UHGV virus genome: UHGV-0130462
DNA length: 38,884 nt
Direction: 5' to 3' (one strand)
Source of the DNA: a virus
Positions 8,138 to 35,573 of this stretch are shown here, piece after piece. Position 1 is the stretch's first letter. Each line of letters begins with the position of its first letter. Made by a program: the position numbers and the translations under genes. The notes beneath the pieces were generated by a model. It worked only from the letters and a program-made list of their open reading frames with translations. It was not told the DNA's origin and searched no databases.

Positions 8138-10354
8138 TTAGTTCCTGACTTCTGCTTGCGTTCCAGCACTTAAACTTTGTGAGATTGTAGAGACTGCCTT
8201 TTCGAACTTGCTTGTTCCTGCTGGAGTTCCTGCTAATCTCATCACCGCCTCTCTAACTGGTTTACTTTCATAAATGCGAGCTAGTGCACCATAAGTTCCA
8301 GCACCAATTGCGGTTGATGGTTTTATGGCTGCGCCTAGGCCAAGTATGAACGGAATTGCTTGCTGACCAGTCGGCGTTGTGACACCTGCTTTTGCGGCTT
8401 GTTTGGTTGCTTCTAAATACTTCTTCAAGCCATTTATATAAATAGCATCTTGACCTCTAAATGCTATCCCTGTTTGGTTTGACATGATATTTAGTTGCCT
8501 CAAGAACTGATCGGGAGAATCACCAGCTTTCTCAATCGCCTTACCAATAATGGCATTCCTCATTTGAGCGCGACCACGAGTGTCAACTGAGTTATATAAA
8601 CTCCTAATTTCAGATTTGTTTTTGCTAAATAAAATATTGTTAACCACCTCTGGCGTTAAATCACCTTTGGTTAAGATGCTCTTCAATCGAGTATTTAATA
8701 TTTTATTTGCTTCATCTGCATAGATAGCATTGGCTTGGTTATATTTGCGTAAAGCATCAGCACCTAAGTTTGATGATATTGCATCACTAGCGTCATCAGA
8801 CATGGCTTTATAAACTCTATTTATCGCAGCATCAGAGCGATTAGGCATAGCCATTCTCTCACCCTTGACGTCTTGTCTAAATTGGGTTCTTAAGTCTCTT
8901 AGTTGAGAAATATCAACGTTACCAGATGCAAGCTCATTCCTGTAAGACTGCAATTTTGAGATGGTCTGTGTGTCAGCAACCTCACCAAGTTTAGATAATT
9001 TAGAGATTTCGCTATCAATCTGATTTATTGCTCGGTTAGGTGTGATAGGCACACCAGATAACGCATTCTGGATTGACTCTAACCTTTCGCCAGCCGCCTG
9101 TTTTATTGTTGATGTTTTTCGCTTTAAACTCTCAACAACTTGGCTAGGATCGTACTCTCCAAACCTGTCTGCGAAATCACGAACAAGTTTACTCCTCGCC
9201 TCTTGTTGGTTTGAACGCAAACCTGCCGTACCAGCAAAAGGTATGTTTTCAGCAGCCCCTTGAGCTAACCTTCCAGTTTTTGATTGCGGAGGTACAACGT
9301 CAGTTGTGTATAAAGGAACATTATTCTGCTTAGCGAATTCTGACAGCTCAGATGCCTCTTGCGTTGGTTTTCCGGTTGCCACCCGATAACCACTATTAAT
9401 AAGCTTCTCCGCCGCTTTAAACCCACCTCCAAGCCCTGCTGATAATGCTGTTTGTAGCGGGTTAATATCGCTACCGCCCGCCATATTAACGGACGATTGT
9501 AGAGCCAAGTCTGTACCTGCTGATTTCGCAGTGGCACCTAGTACAGTTGATGCTCTTCCCGCTGGAGTAAATGCGGCCGCGTTCGCTATAAATGGCATGA
9601 TATCTTCAGCTGATAGACCAGGCTTATTTAATGCATATCGGCCAGATGGTAAGTCAACTAACAGGTTCCCCTTTTCATCTTGAGATACCTTGCCTCCCAT
9701 ATTCCCGATCACTTTTACAAAGTCGTTGTCGTTGCCGAACATTTGTACCCAAGCCGCTTTCATTGCGTCAGTATTGAATGCATTCATTTCTGGCGAAGAC
9801 ATGATCCCTTCTAGCCCTTGGACTTCAGGAGTCATCTTGCTTTCACCAGTGAAGGCATCTATTACGTTTTCACGGAAACTTTTGGCGTCCTCAGACGATT
9901 GCTGTAACCCTTGAGAAAGATTCTGGTTGGTTTGCTTCATGCCGGCGATATAACTATTTTCTGGCTGTGCTGGTTGAGTGCCTTGTTCTTGTTGTGCCGA
10001 TGCGTCGAACTGATCAAAAAAATTCCTTACTTGCGGTAGGTATTCTTCTGCTTGTTGATTATGTAAGCTTTCGGCATAAGCTGTAGCGTCTTCTGGTGTT
10101 GAAAACATACCTAAGTGCTTACCTGTTCTTAGGTAGTTATCAATAGCTTCGTCGTCAGACATGATCCTGCCATCATCACTAACTGTGGGTATTAACACCT
10201 CCATTCCATCAATGTTTGCCGACAAACTCCTAACGGTACTTATGCTACCGTCTTCATTTTTCACCACTGGCCGATTATGAATATCAATATTACCTTTCTC
10301 AATCATACCATTAGGTAATTTTTGCTCATCAAATTGATCAAAGAAATTAGCCAT
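8138..10354 (-). CDS. internal virion / DNA-ejection protein (P22 gp16 position), 738 aa
   Basis: Position and size in the conserved P22-like order gp7-gp20-gp16 upstream of tailspike. Confidence 0.5.
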   Translation of the reverse strand: MANFFDQFDEQKLPNGMIEKGNIDIHNRPVVKNEDGSISTVRSLSANIDGMEVLIPTVSDDGRIMSDDEAIDNYLRTGKHLGMFSTPEDATAYAESLHNQQAEEYLPQVRNFFDQFDASAQQEQGTQPAQPENSYIAGMKQTNQNLSQGLQQSSEDAKSFRENVIDAFTGESKMTPEVQGLEGIMSSPEMNAFNTDAMKAAWVQMFGNDNDFVKVIGNMGGKVSQDEKGNLLVDLPSGRYALNKPGLSAEDIMPFIANAAAFTPAGRASTVLGATAKSAGTDLALQSSVNMAGGSDINPLQTALSAGLGGGFKAAEKLINSGYRVATGKPTQEASELSEFAKQNNVPLYTTDVVPPQSKTGRLAQGAAENIPFAGTAGLRSNQQEARSKLVRDFADRFGEYDPSQVVESLKRKTSTIKQAAGERLESIQNALSGVPITPNRAINQIDSEISKLSKLGEVADTQTISKLQSYRNELASGNVDISQLRDLRTQFRQDVKGERMAMPNRSDAAINRVYKAMSDDASDAISSNLGADALRKYNQANAIYADEANKILNTRLKSILTKGDLTPEVVNNILFSKNKSEIRSLYNSVDTRGRAQMRNAIIGKAIEKAGDSPDQFLRQLNIMSNQTGIAFRGQDAIYINGLKKYLEATKQAAKAGVTTPTGQQAIPFILGLGAAIKPSTAIGAGTYGALARIYESKPVREAVMRLAGTPAGTSKFEKAVSTISQSLSAGTQAEVRN

Positions 10355-23733: not shown

Positions 23734-24146
23734 AACAACAACCATGCATCTTCAAATACTTTTGGGCTGTAAGGCTGATAACCCAGCTCAACACCAACAA
23801 TCGCTGTGCCCAATGCAATCATAACTTCTTTTTTGTTGACTGATACACAATCTTCCGTACTTACATTCAATTCTTTAGCGACTCGATGAATGTATCCCTC
23901 AGTATTATTTTCTTTGGGCGGAGCATAGCGATTGATGATTTCACGGATAGAACATAACCCGTATTTCTTTTCGTAGGTTCGCATCAATACATAGATTGCT
24001 CGTATACCATATTCAGGTGATACGAATTGGCAAAAGTCTTTATCGGTTTGCTGTGCAGATAGTCCTTGCCATTTTGAACCGTGTCGAATATTACCAGGGT
24101 TGTTGTTTCTTTCCCCGCGTGCTGGTCTAGTCATCTTTAACTCCAA
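23730..24146 (-). CDS. putative endolysin (assigned by position between holin and spanins)
   Basis: Overlaps the holin stop and Rz start; family not recognised from sequence alone. Confidence 0.5.
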   Translation of the reverse strand: MELKMTRPARGERNNNPGNIRHGSKWQGLSAQQTDKDFCQFVSPEYGIRAIYVLMRTYEKKYGLCSIREIINRYAPPKENNTEGYIHRVAKELNVSTEDCVSVNKKEVMIALGTAIVGVELGYQPYSPKVFEDAWLLL

Positions 24147-24483
24147 ACTTAGCCTTTACTATTTTGACCGCACCCTCAAAAAGTGCGTATAGTTTCTTTG
24201 TCCCTAAGAATCCAATTACAACACCACAGAATTCCGCCAATAATGCCCACGAACTAGCATCACCACTACGTGATAGCCACCAATCAATAAACCGAATAGT
24301 TCCAACACTAAGCAAGCCACACATAACAGCCTCACCTAAAGAACGCTTCCATTGAGAACCAGCCTGTCTTTCTCTGATGTATGCAATTGTTGTAGCAATA
24401 GTAAATCCACCTAAGAGTGGGAGGACCGATTGTAACCAGCGTAAAATCTGCTCCCATTCGAATTTTTCTGGCATACGTTTCAT
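24127..24483 (-). CDS. class I holin, lambda S-like, with dual-start motif
   Basis: MKRMPEK... N-terminus and AYIRERQ...MCGLL...IRFIDWWL parallel lambda S; two in-frame ATGs separated by Lys-Arg (24483 and 24474); GGAGG upstream. Confidence 0.85.
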   Translation of the reverse strand: MKRMPEKFEWEQILRWLQSVLPLLGGFTIATTIAYIRERQAGSQWKRSLGEAVMCGLLSVGTIRFIDWWLSRSGDASSWALLAEFCGVVIGFLGTKKLYALFEGAVKIVKAKFGVKDD

Positions 24484-24583
24484 ACCCACCTCCCCATAGG
24501 AGGAATTTAGTTAATAGAACGCCGACTCACAGCTCTTGTGTGAACGTGAGGTGTTGTGATTGATTCTGTGGTCGGCATATACG

Positions 24584-24607
24584 AAAAAGCCCCACTAAAA
24601 GTGAGGC
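24584..24607 (-). terminator. rho-independent terminator between the KilA-N gene and the holin
   Basis: Minus-strand RNA: GCCUCAC-UUUUA-GUGGGGC followed by U5. Confidence 0.5.
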
Positions 24608-24627
24608 TTGCTATAAGTGATTCATAA

Positions 24628-25395
24628 TTACTCTGGGGCTGGTAAGGCTAATATTATATCATTCAGATGAGGTAATGCTTCTTTATCTTTACCCTTAAAG
24701 TAAGTTATTGATTTATTCTTTATCCAGTTGTTAATTTCAAAATTAAACATTGTCATTAACTCATTTGGATAAAGCCTTGCCTTAACAACTGGTCTTCTTC
24801 CATCATCAAATTCATGCTCATAAACAGGAAATGAATCAGGATCATAACCTCTAGCCCTGAGAATATCGCTAAAGAATCTACCTAAAGATATGTCAGGCAT
24901 AAGTTTTTGTGGGAGCATATACCCTCTAGATTCTAATGGAGCTAATAACTTTAAAGTCATTTGATCCAGCATAGAAAAGTGAGTTGGCGGTATTTTTTCC
25001 CGATTAATTAAGTAACGCCTTACATGATATGGCATCGCTGATTGATGCTGTTTTGCACCAGACATCCAATCGAATACCCATTTTGAAACAAGAACAGCGA
25101 ACTTAGGTGAAGCCCATTGACCTAAGTTGATAGCTACCTGAGGATGAACCCAAGTGCCTTGCATTTGAGAAAAACCACCTCTAACTATTTGAATTAATTC
25201 CGATACCGGAATTCCGGTATCGCTCGATAATTCAGCAACAAATGCTTTTGTTGAGTTATTATCAAGGTAATGATTGAGCCTCTTCCCAGCAGCTTGACAC
25301 ATTGCAGTAGCATTTATGTATCCATCATGAGCTCTTTGTGAAATAACTACATTGTTTTCCTGCCTAGAAATTAATGGCAATTCTAATTGGTTCAT
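24628..25395 (-). CDS. KilA-N domain protein with a C-terminal domain of unknown function
   Basis: N-terminal region (...HDGYINATAMCQAAGKRLNHYL...TKAFVAEL...) fits the KilA-N pattern; AAGGAG 5 nt upstream of ATG 25395 (ORF track start 25410 is TTG). Confidence 0.7.
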   Translation of the reverse strand: MNQLELPLISRQENNVVISQRAHDGYINATAMCQAAGKRLNHYLDNNSTKAFVAELSSDTGIPVSELIQIVRGGFSQMQGTWVHPQVAINLGQWASPKFAVLVSKWVFDWMSGAKQHQSAMPYHVRRYLINREKIPPTHFSMLDQMTLKLLAPLESRGYMLPQKLMPDISLGRFFSDILRARGYDPDSFPVYEHEFDDGRRPVVKARLYPNELMTMFNFEINNWIKNKSITYFKGKDKEALPHLNDIILALPAPE

Positions 25396-25470
25396 TACAT
25401 CTCCTTGCAAAAATCCAAATTACATTTTATGACAAGAAGATATAAAGCTAAAGGCAAATTAATATATACG

Positions 25471-25492
25471 AAAAAAGACCGCCTAAGCGATC
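25471..25492 (-). terminator. second late-leader terminator
   Basis: Minus-strand RNA: GAUCGC-UUAG-GCGGUC followed by U6. Confidence 0.5.
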
Positions 25493-25587
25493 TTCTGAAT
25501 GAGTTGTTCGGAATAACCGAATATGTGAACTATCCGGAAATTCCGGAGAGTTGAACTTGTAACGATTGCTTACAGGTTGCAGATAAC

Positions 25588-25609
25588 AAAAAACCCCGCC
25601 GGAGCGAGG
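25588..25609 (-). terminator. tR'-like terminator of the late leader
   Basis: Minus-strand RNA: CCUCGC-UCCG-GCGGGG followed by U6, about 50-60 nt downstream of the candidate late promoter. Confidence 0.6.
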
Positions 25610-25660
25610 TCTTGAATTCTTTTAACGTTAACGAAATGGCAATAACCCATCGTTAGAACG

Positions 25661-25689
25661 ATATTTACACAGAAAGGTGCAAAAGTCAA
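25661..25689 (-). promoter_or_regulatory. candidate late promoter PR'
   Basis: Minus strand: TTGACT, 17-nt spacer, AAATAT; directly downstream of the Q-like gene. Confidence 0.4.
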
Positions 25690-25713
25690 TTCATTCGTTA
25701 GAAGTATTCGTTT

Positions 25714-26469
25714 TTAATTTGTTACCTTTTTTAGTATGTAATCTGCGTTACTTTCTCCTTTTTCACACTCAACCGCCAATGACTCATAAAATTTACTAAC
25801 TGAACGCTTCCATTGATCAATCGTAATCCCTAAATGAGACACAGCCTGAAAAGCCTTTGATGCAGGTATTCGCTCGTAACCACGACCAGAACAACGCTTA
25901 CAAGGCATACTGACAGCCTCACCGGTTAACCTTAGCGTTTCTTTGTCTATTGCCATACCACGCCCTTTACAGTCATTGCACGCACAAGAAACATAACCTT
26001 TACCGTTACACTTATCACAAGCGCATGACTCGGTGTCATCAATAATGCGAACTTCTTTACCAAAGACTTTTTTAACCTTAATCGCCTTTACCTTAAAACC
26101 TGATCCATTGCACTTTACGCACTCAATAACACTTGATGCCGATCTGCAATAATCTGCATAAGCGAATTTTGCGAGTATTTGCATTACCTTTCGCTTAACA
26201 TTCATATCGAGCTTGCGTAAGGCTGGAACCTTATCGCAATGATTCAATGCATGCCGAGTTAAAAGTTGTATCGCTTTCACTTTGTCATTCTGGCTTATCT
26301 CCATCTTTCCCGAGAACGCAGAAAAGCCGAATGACTCTTTACTCTGACACATACCAAAAGCGCCCATAACATCAGTACCGGTTAATCTATCTGGCGATGT
26401 TGAGCTAGGCGCATCTGATATTGATGTTGTTTTGGCGAAGTGATATTTAACAGCGCTTTCTAGGTTCAT
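25714..26469 (-). CDS. putative late-gene antiterminator (Q-like) with a DnaJ-type zinc finger
   Basis: Four CxxCxGxG repeats (CVKCNGSG, CDKCNGKG, CNDCKGRG, CKRCSGRG); sits between the nin genes and the late promoter/terminator; GGAGG upstream. Confidence 0.5.
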   Translation of the reverse strand: MNLESAVKYHFAKTTSISDAPSSTSPDRLTGTDVMGAFGMCQSKESFGFSAFSGKMEISQNDKVKAIQLLTRHALNHCDKVPALRKLDMNVKRKVMQILAKFAYADYCRSASSVIECVKCNGSGFKVKAIKVKKVFGKEVRIIDDTESCACDKCNGKGYVSCACNDCKGRGMAIDKETLRLTGEAVSMPCKRCSGRGYERIPASKAFQAVSHLGITIDQWKRSVSKFYESLAVECEKGESNADYILKKVTN

Positions 26470-33121: not shown

Positions 33122-33141
33122 CTTTGTGTTCGGAGGTTCGC

Positions 33142-33852
33142 ATGGAACTTAGAGATCGAATTAATTACTTGCTAAAGGCTGAAAATCTAAAGCAAAAGGA
33201 CTTAGCTGAGAAACTAAATGCCAGTGCGCAAACAGTTAATAACTGGCTAAAAAGAAACTCAATTAGCAGGGAAGCAGCGCAACAGATTAGTGATATTTTT
33301 GGTTATTCACTTGACTGGTTACTGATTGGCAAAGGTGAGCCGAAAATAAAAAATATTGGACAATCAGAAATACCTGATGAAAACAAATTTATTCCTCTTC
33401 GAGTTTGGGATAGTCTAACACCTCTTGAGGCAGATGAAGTTGAGGTTCCTTTTTTGAAGGATATAGAATTTGCTTGTGGTGATGGATCGTTTACAGACAC
33501 TGATTACAACGGATTTAAACTAAGGTTTTCTAAAGCAACAATGCGGAGGATCGGAGCCAACAGTGACGGAGAAGGTGTGATTTGCTTCCCAGCCAGAGGG
33601 GATAGCATGGAGCCTGTTATATTTAATGGTACTACTGTTGCTGTAAACACTAGAGATAAGAAAATTGTTGATGGTAAAATTTATGCGATAAATCAAGGTG
33701 GGCTAAAAAGAGTGAAAATGCTTCATCAAACCACGCCTAAAACATTAACAATTCGTAGCTTCAATAAAATTGACTACCCAGACGAAGAAGTGCCAATAGA
33801 GGCAATAGAGATCATCGGTAGAGTTTTCTGGTGGTCTGTATTAGACGTCTAA
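33142..33852 (+). CDS. cI: CI-type prophage repressor (HTH plus LexA-like S24 autopeptidase domain)
   Basis: N-terminal HTH (LKQKDLAEKLNASAQTVNNWL) and C-terminal GDSMEP ... LKRVK catalytic Ser/Lys; GGAGG 6 nt upstream of ATG 33142. Confidence 0.9.
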   Translation: MELRDRINYLLKAENLKQKDLAEKLNASAQTVNNWLKRNSISREAAQQISDIFGYSLDWLLIGKGEPKIKNIGQSEIPDENKFIPLRVWDSLTPLEADEVEVPFLKDIEFACGDGSFTDTDYNGFKLRFSKATMRRIGANSDGEGVICFPARGDSMEPVIFNGTTVAVNTRDKKIVDGKIYAINQGGLKRVKMLHQTTPKTLTIRSFNKIDYPDEEVPIEAIEIIGRVFWWSVLDV

Positions 33853-34961: not shown

Positions 34962-35573
34962 TCATTTATTAAAATATCCAGTGAATTGCCTAACGCATTC
35001 TGAGTAATAATCGGGATTAATTATAAACTCATTGGTATGTCTCATACTCAAATGCTTTGACGAATCATGGAGAATGTCTTTATCCAACAGTGAGTTAATA
35101 ACAGGGTCATTTCTTTTCCCGCCTAGAAATTCCTTTCCAGTGTCAATGAACATGGCTAGGTAATCCTTTTCATCCTCAGAAAGGCTTGAAATAACAAATG
35201 ATATTTTGTGCTGATTATTACGCTTTATTGATTTTAACTTTACGGAATTAATTATACCAAAAGTTAATAAATATATTCTTTTTGTTATATCTGAAAGAAA
35301 GAAGCTAACAGGAATAATAAAAAGAACAGCATTGATATTATTTACCGAGCCAAAAATTGGCTTTGCGTTAAGAAAATCAAAGAATGATTCAGGTAAAAAT
35401 AACCACAAACTGACCAGATATAGCAACCACACCATAGTAAACCTCAGTGAAATTTGGTTTTTCAAATAGGCAATCACTGCCTCAATCCAATTCGGCATGG
35501 TTGATAATCTCTTATTCTGTAGGGGTAAGTGGATTATAGCCGATTTCTCGATGTAGGGGTACACGAGAACCAC
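34962..35573 (-). CDS. AT-rich membrane protein (two N-terminal TM helices plus soluble C-terminal domain), transcribed against the pL operon; superinfection-exclusion or abortive-infection candidate
   Basis: ORF track; hydrophobic segments FTMVWLLYLVSLWLFL and INAVLFIIPVSFFL; convergent with the upstream plus-strand gene, divergent from the next; strongly AT-rich. An alternative GTG start at 35564 has a GAGGTG site upstream. Confidence 0.6.
   Translation of the reverse strand: MVLVYPYIEKSAIIHLPLQNKRLSTMPNWIEAVIAYLKNQISLRFTMVWLLYLVSLWLFLPESFFDFLNAKPIFGSVNNINAVLFIIPVSFFLSDITKRIYLLTFGIINSVKLKSIKRNNQHKISFVISSLSEDEKDYLAMFIDTGKEFLGGKRNDPVINSLLDKDILHDSSKHLSMRHTNEFIINPDYYSECVRQFTGYFNK

Follow-up and report, generated by a model that had tools for sequence, protein, structure and literature searches.

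The virus genome UHGV-0130462, a stretch of 38,884 nt that is called the window throughout, comes from a P22-like temperate prophage of Proteus mirabilis and carries, between its late promoter and its lysis genes, an inserted gene for a 255-aa protein in which an N-terminal KilA-N domain is joined to a C-terminal BstA_C domain. The coding sequence of this gene contains a perfect 22-bp palindrome that is maintained by selection at the DNA level. On balance, though narrowly, the sequence evidence favours a BstA-like defence cargo whose expression is gated by the antiterminator Q and whose palindrome is its cognate DNA site, possibly analogous to the aba element of the BstA system. The gene adds a new member to a Pfam-defined architecture that is already known, and it is common in public P. 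mirabilis genomes; it departs from characterised BstA in three respects, namely a homology confined to the C-domain (28%), a late slot equivalent to that of stx and tRNA genes, and a covarying intragenic palindrome with orphan copies elsewhere.

An intragenic palindrome under selection at the DNA level

The palindrome and the coding features around it are the following:

24628-25395, minus strand: open reading frame (ORF) of 255 aa, KilA-N plus BstA_C, with its ATG at 25395
25045-25341, minus strand: KilA-N / APSES-type DNA-binding domain, residues 19-117 (Pfam, E 2.9e-26)
24676-25056, minus strand: BstA_C domain, residues ~114-240 (PADLOC BstA model, PF26567)
25201-25222, no strand assigned: perfect 22-bp palindrome CGATACCGGAATTCCGGTATCG, which spans the last base of codon 58 and codons 59-65 (D-T-G-I-P-V-S)

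The palindrome is kept, with compensating mutations, in more than 100 relatives from many bacterial phyla. At the same 22 positions of 85 cross-phylum homologue loci, it was perfect in 40, paired at 10 of its 11 positions in 17 and at 9 of 11 in another 11; 21 distinct perfect sequences were found among these loci, and further variants in the viral set. When the same peptides were encoded by synonymous codons drawn from each gene's own usage, the expected number of perfect palindromes among the 85 was 0.18 and the maximum was 1. The compensatory changes often alter both amino acids: DTGIPVS is encoded with the arms ATACC/GGTAT, DIGIPIS with ATATC/GATAT (using the rare ATA codon), DMGIPIS with ATATG/CATAT, ETGIPVS with AAACG/CGTTT, VTGIPVT with TTACG/CGTAA and SMGIPMD with TCCATG/CATGGA, and the third base of the Pro codon follows the third base of codon 60 (GC 40, CG 27, UA 4, AU 2). 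Among 82 distinct sequences, 87.8% of the cells were paired versus 72.2% in column shuffles, a value reached by none of 500 shuffles, and changes on both sides affected 128 cells versus 42 in the shuffles. When the partner was slid by 1-3 columns, pairing fell to 24-47%, and complementarity was at chance directly beyond 22-24 bp. The palindrome, whose degenerate form constrained to dyad symmetry is CGNNNNNGGAATTCCNNNNNCG, is retained down to 35% protein identity and also where the KilA-N half alone is homologous, and it keeps the same place in the reading frame in homologues of 35% to 100% protein identity. In a limited literature search, which does not prove novelty, we found no description of KilA-N with 'palindrome' or of the palindrome sequences in a phage context.

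Compared with Mbp1, the KilA-N domain has the palindrome-encoded heptapeptide inserted between the second helix of the helix-turn-helix and the wing, and in the AlphaFold2 model this region runs from the last part of helix 47-60 through a GIP turn into a short helix 64-67. An exploratory calculation of mutual information with palindrome class, which is confounded by phylogeny and was not used as evidence, peaked at residues 39-46 and 69-79 (window ~25160-25280). These peaks fall outside the heptapeptide, in the region of helix 40-45 and the wing of KilA-N, with 0.70 at residue 41 against a mean of 0.34 (standard deviation 0.07).

A role as an mRNA hairpin, in stability, RNase III processing or translational pausing, would suit the 9-bp stem with an AAUU loop predicted for the RNA (-15.7 kcal/mol, z -4.0) and the compensatory changes that preserve pairing, but it appears very unlikely: among sense-strand mismatches G.U is not preferred (9 GT/TG, 18 AC/CA, 24 others), the innermost pair 10/13, which is impossible in a hairpin, covaries (GGT/ATA, GGG/ATC), orphans are found in either orientation and also outside coding sequence, and no Rfam family was matched, a search of 24300-25900 giving nothing at gathering score and istR as the best hit (25 bits versus a cut-off of 45). 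Because G.U bias is absent, the innermost pair covaries and copies lie outside genes, we favour a double-stranded, dyad-symmetric predicted protein-binding site, and regard functionless homogenisation of the two arms through hairpin templating as a less likely alternative.

Orphan copies are present elsewhere in phage genomes. The exact 20-mer GATATGGGAATTCCCATATC has at least 120 loci in IMG/VR, of which only 31 lie inside detectable homologue genes; the window-type 20-mer was found in 8 loci (5 genes, 1 fragment and 2 orphans). Together, the two scans yielded 42 distinct flank classes, in many of which stops close the Asp frame within a few codons, and what orphans and genes have in common is limited to the palindrome and 0-22 nt to one side of it; these searches needed exact matches, and the degree of orphan conservation is not readable from them. 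In Providencia prophages (L007, 4581-4602), a stand-alone 22-bp KilA-N-type palindrome, CGTTATGGGAATTCCCATATCG, lies in the late-operon leader between the tR' terminators; its class differs from that of the palindrome in the prophage's own gene, and its position is orthologous to that of a shorter leader palindrome in the window, TCCGGAAtTTCCGGA. The commonest orphan is found next to hok/sok in Escherichia coli lambdoid prophages, at a mosaic breakpoint. In one example (L220, 5002-5021) it lies ~160 bp upstream of hok/mok/sok, exactly where the similarity to phage 933W (L274) ends, and therefore at a mosaic module boundary. Phage 933W itself lacks the site and was therefore rejected as an annotated instance of this E. 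coli orphan. In two IMG/VR contigs of 250 kb and 95 kb (L177, 1927; L201, 3785), the core is centred in a ~44-bp palindrome, AAAAAAATAATAGATATGGGAATTCCCATATCTATTATTTTTAT, which has a single mismatch near one end and lies outside any detectable homologue gene.

An inserted cassette in the late transcription unit

All genes of the Q-to-lysis region lie on the minus strand, in the downstream order NinG, a small ORF, Q, PR', pause element, T1, a 15-bp palindrome, T2, ribosome-binding site, the 255-aa ORF, T3, holin, endolysin and Rz:

25714-26469, minus strand: Q antiterminator gene, 251 aa (Antiterm PF03589, E 2.4e-34; PF00684, E 1.6e-7; phrog_127, E 1.6e-83)
25662-25689, minus strand: candidate late promoter PR' (TTGACT 25689-25684, 16-nt spacer, TAAATA 25667-25662; read from the sequence)
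25646-25654, minus strand: AACGAT-GGG, sigma70-dependent promoter-proximal pause element similar to that of lambda pR' (read from the sequence)
25590-25613, minus strand: T1, first intrinsic terminator, backbone tR' (scan match with a 10-bp stem and T-run; -15.3 kcal/mol, z -3.2)
25533-25547, no strand assigned: 15-bp odd leader palindrome TCCGGAAtTTCCGGA, backbone, between T1 and T2, also written TCCGGAATTTCCGGA (-11.3 kcal/mol; also in Brookers and BPM-V3)
25473-25496, minus strand: T2, second intrinsic terminator, backbone, followed by U6 (fold -12.6 kcal/mol, z -4.5; 0/200 shuffles as good)
25464-25477, minus strand: direct repeat 1, CTTTTTTCGTATAT, left cassette flank (window compared with the BPM-V3 empty site and with Brookers)
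24577-25463, minus strand: inserted cassette of 887 bp (blastn breakpoints against loci L001 and L002)
25401-25406, minus strand: ribosome-binding site AAGGAG, 5-nt spacer to the ATG at 25395 (read from the sequence)
24587-24609, minus strand: T3, the cassette's own intrinsic terminator, within the inserted segment (scan match; -13.9 kcal/mol, z -4.1)
24577-24589, minus strand: direct repeat 2, CTTTTTCGTATAT, right cassette end, after T3 (sequence comparison)
24127-24489, minus strand: holin, first gene of the lysis cassette (Phage_holin_3_1 PF05106, E 4e-14)
24146-23730, minus strand: endolysin, then 23745-23278, Rz (PF03245, E 1.2e-29); lysis genes phrog_126, phrog_873 and phrog_13

This anatomy bears out a preliminary description of the locus, which had placed a KilA-N gene with a strong ribosome-binding site in the promoter-proximal late slot before the lysis genes, behind a candidate PR' and two terminators and followed by a terminator of its own before the holin. 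The gene lies between Q, PR' and the tR' terminators on one side and the lysis genes on the other, co-oriented with them. The ORF-listing program places the start further upstream, at a TTG at 25410, but translation is unlikely to begin there.

The arrangement of Q, a candidate promoter with a -10-like pause element and then the intrinsic terminators T1 and T2 is that of a lambda-type Q-dependent late unit, in which the promoter is constitutive. The candidate PR' starts 25 nt past the Q stop codon and scores below the threshold of a consensus promoter scan, and T2 was missed by the consensus terminator scan. Between 22 and 28 kb, 10 terminator-like sites were counted versus 4.2 +/- 2.1 in shuffles. 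In wild-type lambda pR', the -10-like element AACGAT at +1 to +6 is followed by a GGG discriminator-like sequence (PMC4005639). The Q protein of the window joins its Antiterm domain to DnaJ-type CxxCxGxG zinc-finger repeats (PF00684, E 1.6e-7), and its promoter region nevertheless has the lambda-type AACGAT-GGG pause element, though lambda Q belongs to a different Pfam family.

The cassette consists of a 68-nt leader with the ribosome-binding site, the KilA-N/BstA_C ORF, T3 and direct repeat 2. Sister phages have the Q-PR'-T1-palindrome-T2 backbone in common with the window, as well as the 70 bp before the lysis genes. In phage BPM-V3, the junction after T2 is uninserted, with ...GGTCTTTTTTCGTATAT running directly into GCCGACCACAG, so that the empty site reads ...CGTATAT followed by GCCGACCACAG, and in phage Brookers a tRNA-Met is inserted at exactly the same junction. 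T1 is conserved in both phages, and T2 is found at the empty site of BPM-V3 and before the tRNA-Met of Brookers. T1 and T2 are therefore tR' terminators of the phage backbone, as they are kept in relatives that have a tRNA-Met or nothing at the site, and T3, being inside the inserted segment, alone came with the gene. The gene had been described as a moron bracketed by terminators, and this needs to be divided: the discrete insertion and the gene's own terminator stand, whereas T1 and T2 are present without the gene in relatives and no promoter was detected in the cassette, which thus departs from the classical promoter-gene-terminator definition. A scan of the minus strand of the 68-nt leader, based on consensus match only, found no sigma70-like promoter, and by eye only a weak TTTAGC-N17-TAAAAT was seen.

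The module from T1 to T3 recurs with 99.6% identity in another prophage (L017), whose Q belongs to a different family (PF06530) and whose lysis cassette also differs, and the same slot in Providencia prophages holds a 93%-identical gene. The 68-nt leader is identical in Proteus and Providencia while the genes differ by ~5%, which weakly suggests constraint on the leader. A 13-14-bp direct repeat, CTTTTT(T)CGTATAT, is present on both sides of the cassette; together with the re-used junction, it suggests that insertion either prefers this site or occurs by capture through microhomology at the tail of the terminator. In P22-like prophages of the Morganellaceae, the interval between Q and the lysis genes thus serves as a precise insertion junction that is used repeatedly for cargo such as a tRNA or a defence gene. 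The window itself contains no tRNA genes, so that the tRNA cargo of Brookers is absent here.

The same position is used by the cargo of lambdoid phages. In Stx phages, tRNA genes precede stx. Like stx and these tRNAs, the KilA-N/BstA_C gene lies after the late promoter and terminator and before the holin, which points to Q-dependent transcription; it differs in that it encodes a predicted DNA-binding, defence-type protein and not a toxin, and a promoter of its own was not detected.

Domain homology, proposed mode of action and alternatives

The N-terminal KilA-N fold was correctly recognised in the preliminary description, whereas its C-terminal domain, taken there as unrecognised, is BstA_C. 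The PADLOC BstA model matches residues 114-240 (E 4.1e-11), phrog_6287, 'BstA abortive infection system, replication inhibitor', matches residues 6-243 (E 9e-48), and the precomputed Pfam annotation of the exact protein and of all close homologues gives KilA-N plus PF26567 'BstA_C'. An alignment by hhalign with BstA of the Salmonella prophage BTP1 reached 94.6% probability (residues 129-233 against 166-272), and BLASTP aligned the C-domain core only, with 28% identity over 95 aa (E 9e-7). Rather than the standard antirepressor module that had been considered as the alternative, the C-domain is thus a defence module whose role is proven in distant homologues. A search of NCBIfam with the protein gave no family match, and the C-domain had no match among solved structures; the AlphaFold2 model (mean predicted local distance difference test score 85, predicted template modelling score 0.51) indicates two domains. 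By exact look-up, the protein is annotated as 'KilA-N domain-containing protein [Proteus mirabilis]', and the identical protein is present in 155 collection blocks and on many P. mirabilis contigs, including chromosomes. By these sequence comparisons, it is a member of a sister subfamily of the studied BstA proteins and not a close orthologue.

BstA of BTP1 and its relatives BstA-Kp and BstA-Ec are prophage abortive-infection proteins that block the replication of competing phages, and bstA is often, but not always, found directly downstream of cI, with a presumed shared promoter (PMC8585504). The aba element spans 63 bp across the bstA start codon and has CCCGCC terminal direct repeats, and how BstA recognises phage DNA and how aba switches BstA off are stated open questions (PMC8585504), for which the present subfamily supplies a candidate DNA ligand that is short, conserved over great evolutionary distances and naturally variable. 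The protein of the window resembles BstA-BTP1 in being prophage-encoded, in its two domains with a KilA-N or KilA-N-like N-terminus and a homologous C-domain (residues ~156-307 of BstA-BTP1), in having homologues in the slot downstream of cI and in the presence of a cis DNA element inside the gene locus. It differs in length (255 aa versus 307 aa), in its N-domain, which is a canonical Pfam KilA-N, in the location of its gene in the late operon and not behind cI, and in the cis element, which is a 22-bp palindrome at codons 59-65 and not a 63-bp element at the start codon. By analogy, the palindrome and aba would both be short DNA sequences inside a defence gene locus, with variants that differ between homologues in a way resembling 'cognate' specificity and with stand-alone copies predicted to protect a phage; direct terminal repeats and a start-codon position in aba contrast with a perfect dyad within the ORF of the window. 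A further comparison is offered by lambda O, a DNA-binding protein with dyad-symmetric sites (the ori iterons) inside its own coding sequence. There, four iterons and an AT-rich region form a replication origin, whereas the window has a single site.

In the proposed mode of action, the protein would act like BstA through an abortive-infection block of competitor phage replication. Transcription of the gene would have to come from PR', and because the gene is located in the slot, co-oriented and with its own terminator, Q-antiterminated transcription would necessarily pass through it. Expression in the lysogen would probably be low, through read-through at T1 and T2, and judging from the anatomy it would be high after Q antitermination, with the Q-modified polymerase also reading through T3 en route to the lysis genes. 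The palindrome would be the binding site of a symmetric dimer, most likely of the encoded protein itself, and might serve as a self-recognition element for autoregulation, for aba-like self-immunity upon amplification of the phage genome, or for both.

Several observations weigh against this interpretation. The homology to an experimentally tested BstA is limited to ~100 C-domain residues with 28% identity, and a BstA-like defence role of the 255-aa subfamily is inferred from distant homologues. For a role in protecting the lysogen, the chief problem is the location in the late operon: the gene is not behind cI and no promoter was detected for it alone, so that the constitutive expression in the lysogen required for BstA-type defence is only presumed. 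This location would suit equally well a function in lytic growth, directed at co-infecting or co-induced phages. The palindrome is absent from bstA of BTP1, as it is from a KilA-N+P63C gene, and is therefore not a general feature of KilA-N or BstA genes, and it is equally conserved in copies borne by IS1595 elements, where self-immunity during lytic replication is irrelevant. Finally, no aba-like direct repeats were found around the start codon of the window gene, with no repeat family in 25300-25480. An 8-bp AT-rich repeat, ATTAATTT, noticed by eye at 25463 and 25375, was considered as an aba equivalent and rejected as chance-level.

A more specific version of the favoured reading joins these elements, and we put it forward as a tentative possibility that has more against it than for it. 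The palindrome would be the cognate ligand of the very KilA-N domain whose coding sequence it is part of, binding on amplified phage DNA would switch the BstA-like protein off, the half-site variants would constitute specificity classes and the orphans would be decoys. If this were true, self-immunity would be the palindromic counterpart of aba, the variable half-site positions would set specificity classes that necessarily co-vary with residues 60 and 64, and the orphans would be gene-less decoys by which their host phages escape the matching defence protein, the late-operon leader site of Providencia and the hok/sok-adjacent site of E. coli lambdoid prophages being examples. Such decoys would be a new, easily scanned class of anti-defence element, and the joint reading would amount to a sequence-readable code of defence and counter-defence specificity across many phyla.

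Alternatively, the protein may be an ordinary KilA-N DNA-binding regulator or antirepressor of lysis-lysogeny or late expression, unconnected with defence, with the palindrome as its operator. Phage regulators often contain KilA-N domains, residues 19-128 match phrog_129 'transcriptional regulator' (E 3e-24), homologues are annotated 'DNA-binding protein' or 'transcriptional regulator' in phage records, and a related palindrome is present in the late-operon leader. We nevertheless regard this as unlikely. The Pfam search of the protein, which gives KilA-N alone, found no ANT, Bro-C or other antirepressor C-terminal module, and the C-domain is BstA_C. The single palindrome copy of the window is inside the ORF and not at a promoter; a second copy of the 22-bp palindrome or of its core was not found in the window, nor did shuffles give a match, and extra copies are rare among homologues (5 of 57 loci), which makes a multi-operator model unlikely. 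Moreover, the family is also carried by IS1595 elements in non-phage contexts.

These same elements bear on the possibility that the gene is selfish or mobility cargo, in which the palindrome would be a recombination or cleavage hot spot, or would owe its symmetry to hairpin-templated repair, and the orphans would be junction scars. The gene is a passenger in IS1595-family elements that occur twice per genome in two genomes, in units of 2.26 kb and 2.57 kb (L026/L027, 1895-4152; L042/L043, 2180-4753), complete with terminal inverted repeats of 33 bp and ~23 bp, 8-bp target duplications and a transposase within. Of 100 homologue loci, 24 have an IS1595 transposase next to the gene, and among upstream neighbours this transposase is the most frequent (19 of 127 loci, compared with ~6 for cI-like Peptidase_S24/HTH_3 and 3 for Q). 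In addition, direct repeats flank the window cassette at a recurrent insertion junction, the orphans share little beyond the palindrome with the genes, and the E. coli orphan sits at the mosaic breakpoint with 933W. This explanation, too, seems improbable to us, as the palindrome lies in the middle of the ORF, away from the ends of the cassette or of the insertion sequences, at an invariant frame position, and the orphans keep the perfect 22-mer, a point biased by the exact-match search. The window copy shares the gene with the many homologues that are located between IS1595 terminal inverted repeats and 8-bp target duplications, but it is a phage cassette between direct repeats of 13-14 bp; no IS1595 transposase or inverted repeats were found near it, and tblastn with two IS1595 transposases gave no match in the window.

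Relatives and the immunity region of the prophage

The family is very widespread and unusually conserved, with 50-65% identity across Proteobacteria, Chloroflexota, Bacteroidota, Bacillota, Spirochaetota, Planctomycetota and candidate phyla. The same defence-type gene moves on prophages in two slots and on IS1595 elements across phyla. The second prophage slot is the one directly downstream of cI, where full-length homologues of 51% identity are found in Proteus phage BPM-V3 and E. coli phage PhiR5_2.

Among the prophage marks of the window are an integrase, cI, CII, Q, lysis and P22-type morphogenesis genes and a SieB-like gene. Its cI is encoded on the plus strand at 33124-33852, ~8 kb away from the KilA-N/BstA_C gene in the late operon, and nothing BstA-like was found behind it. 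Downstream of cI lies the SieB-like superinfection-exclusion gene (34962-35573, minus strand; phrog_1301, E 2e-11; phrog_6399, E 2e-8), which by this position is a second candidate exclusion function, at a classical hot spot of the immunity region. A second gene for a 255-aa KilA-N protein was observed in a Providencia prophage (L008) that also holds the KilA-N/BstA_C gene in the Q-holin slot; this second protein has a P63C C-terminus, and its gene (8612-9379), which lacks the palindrome, is located just before that of the small terminase.

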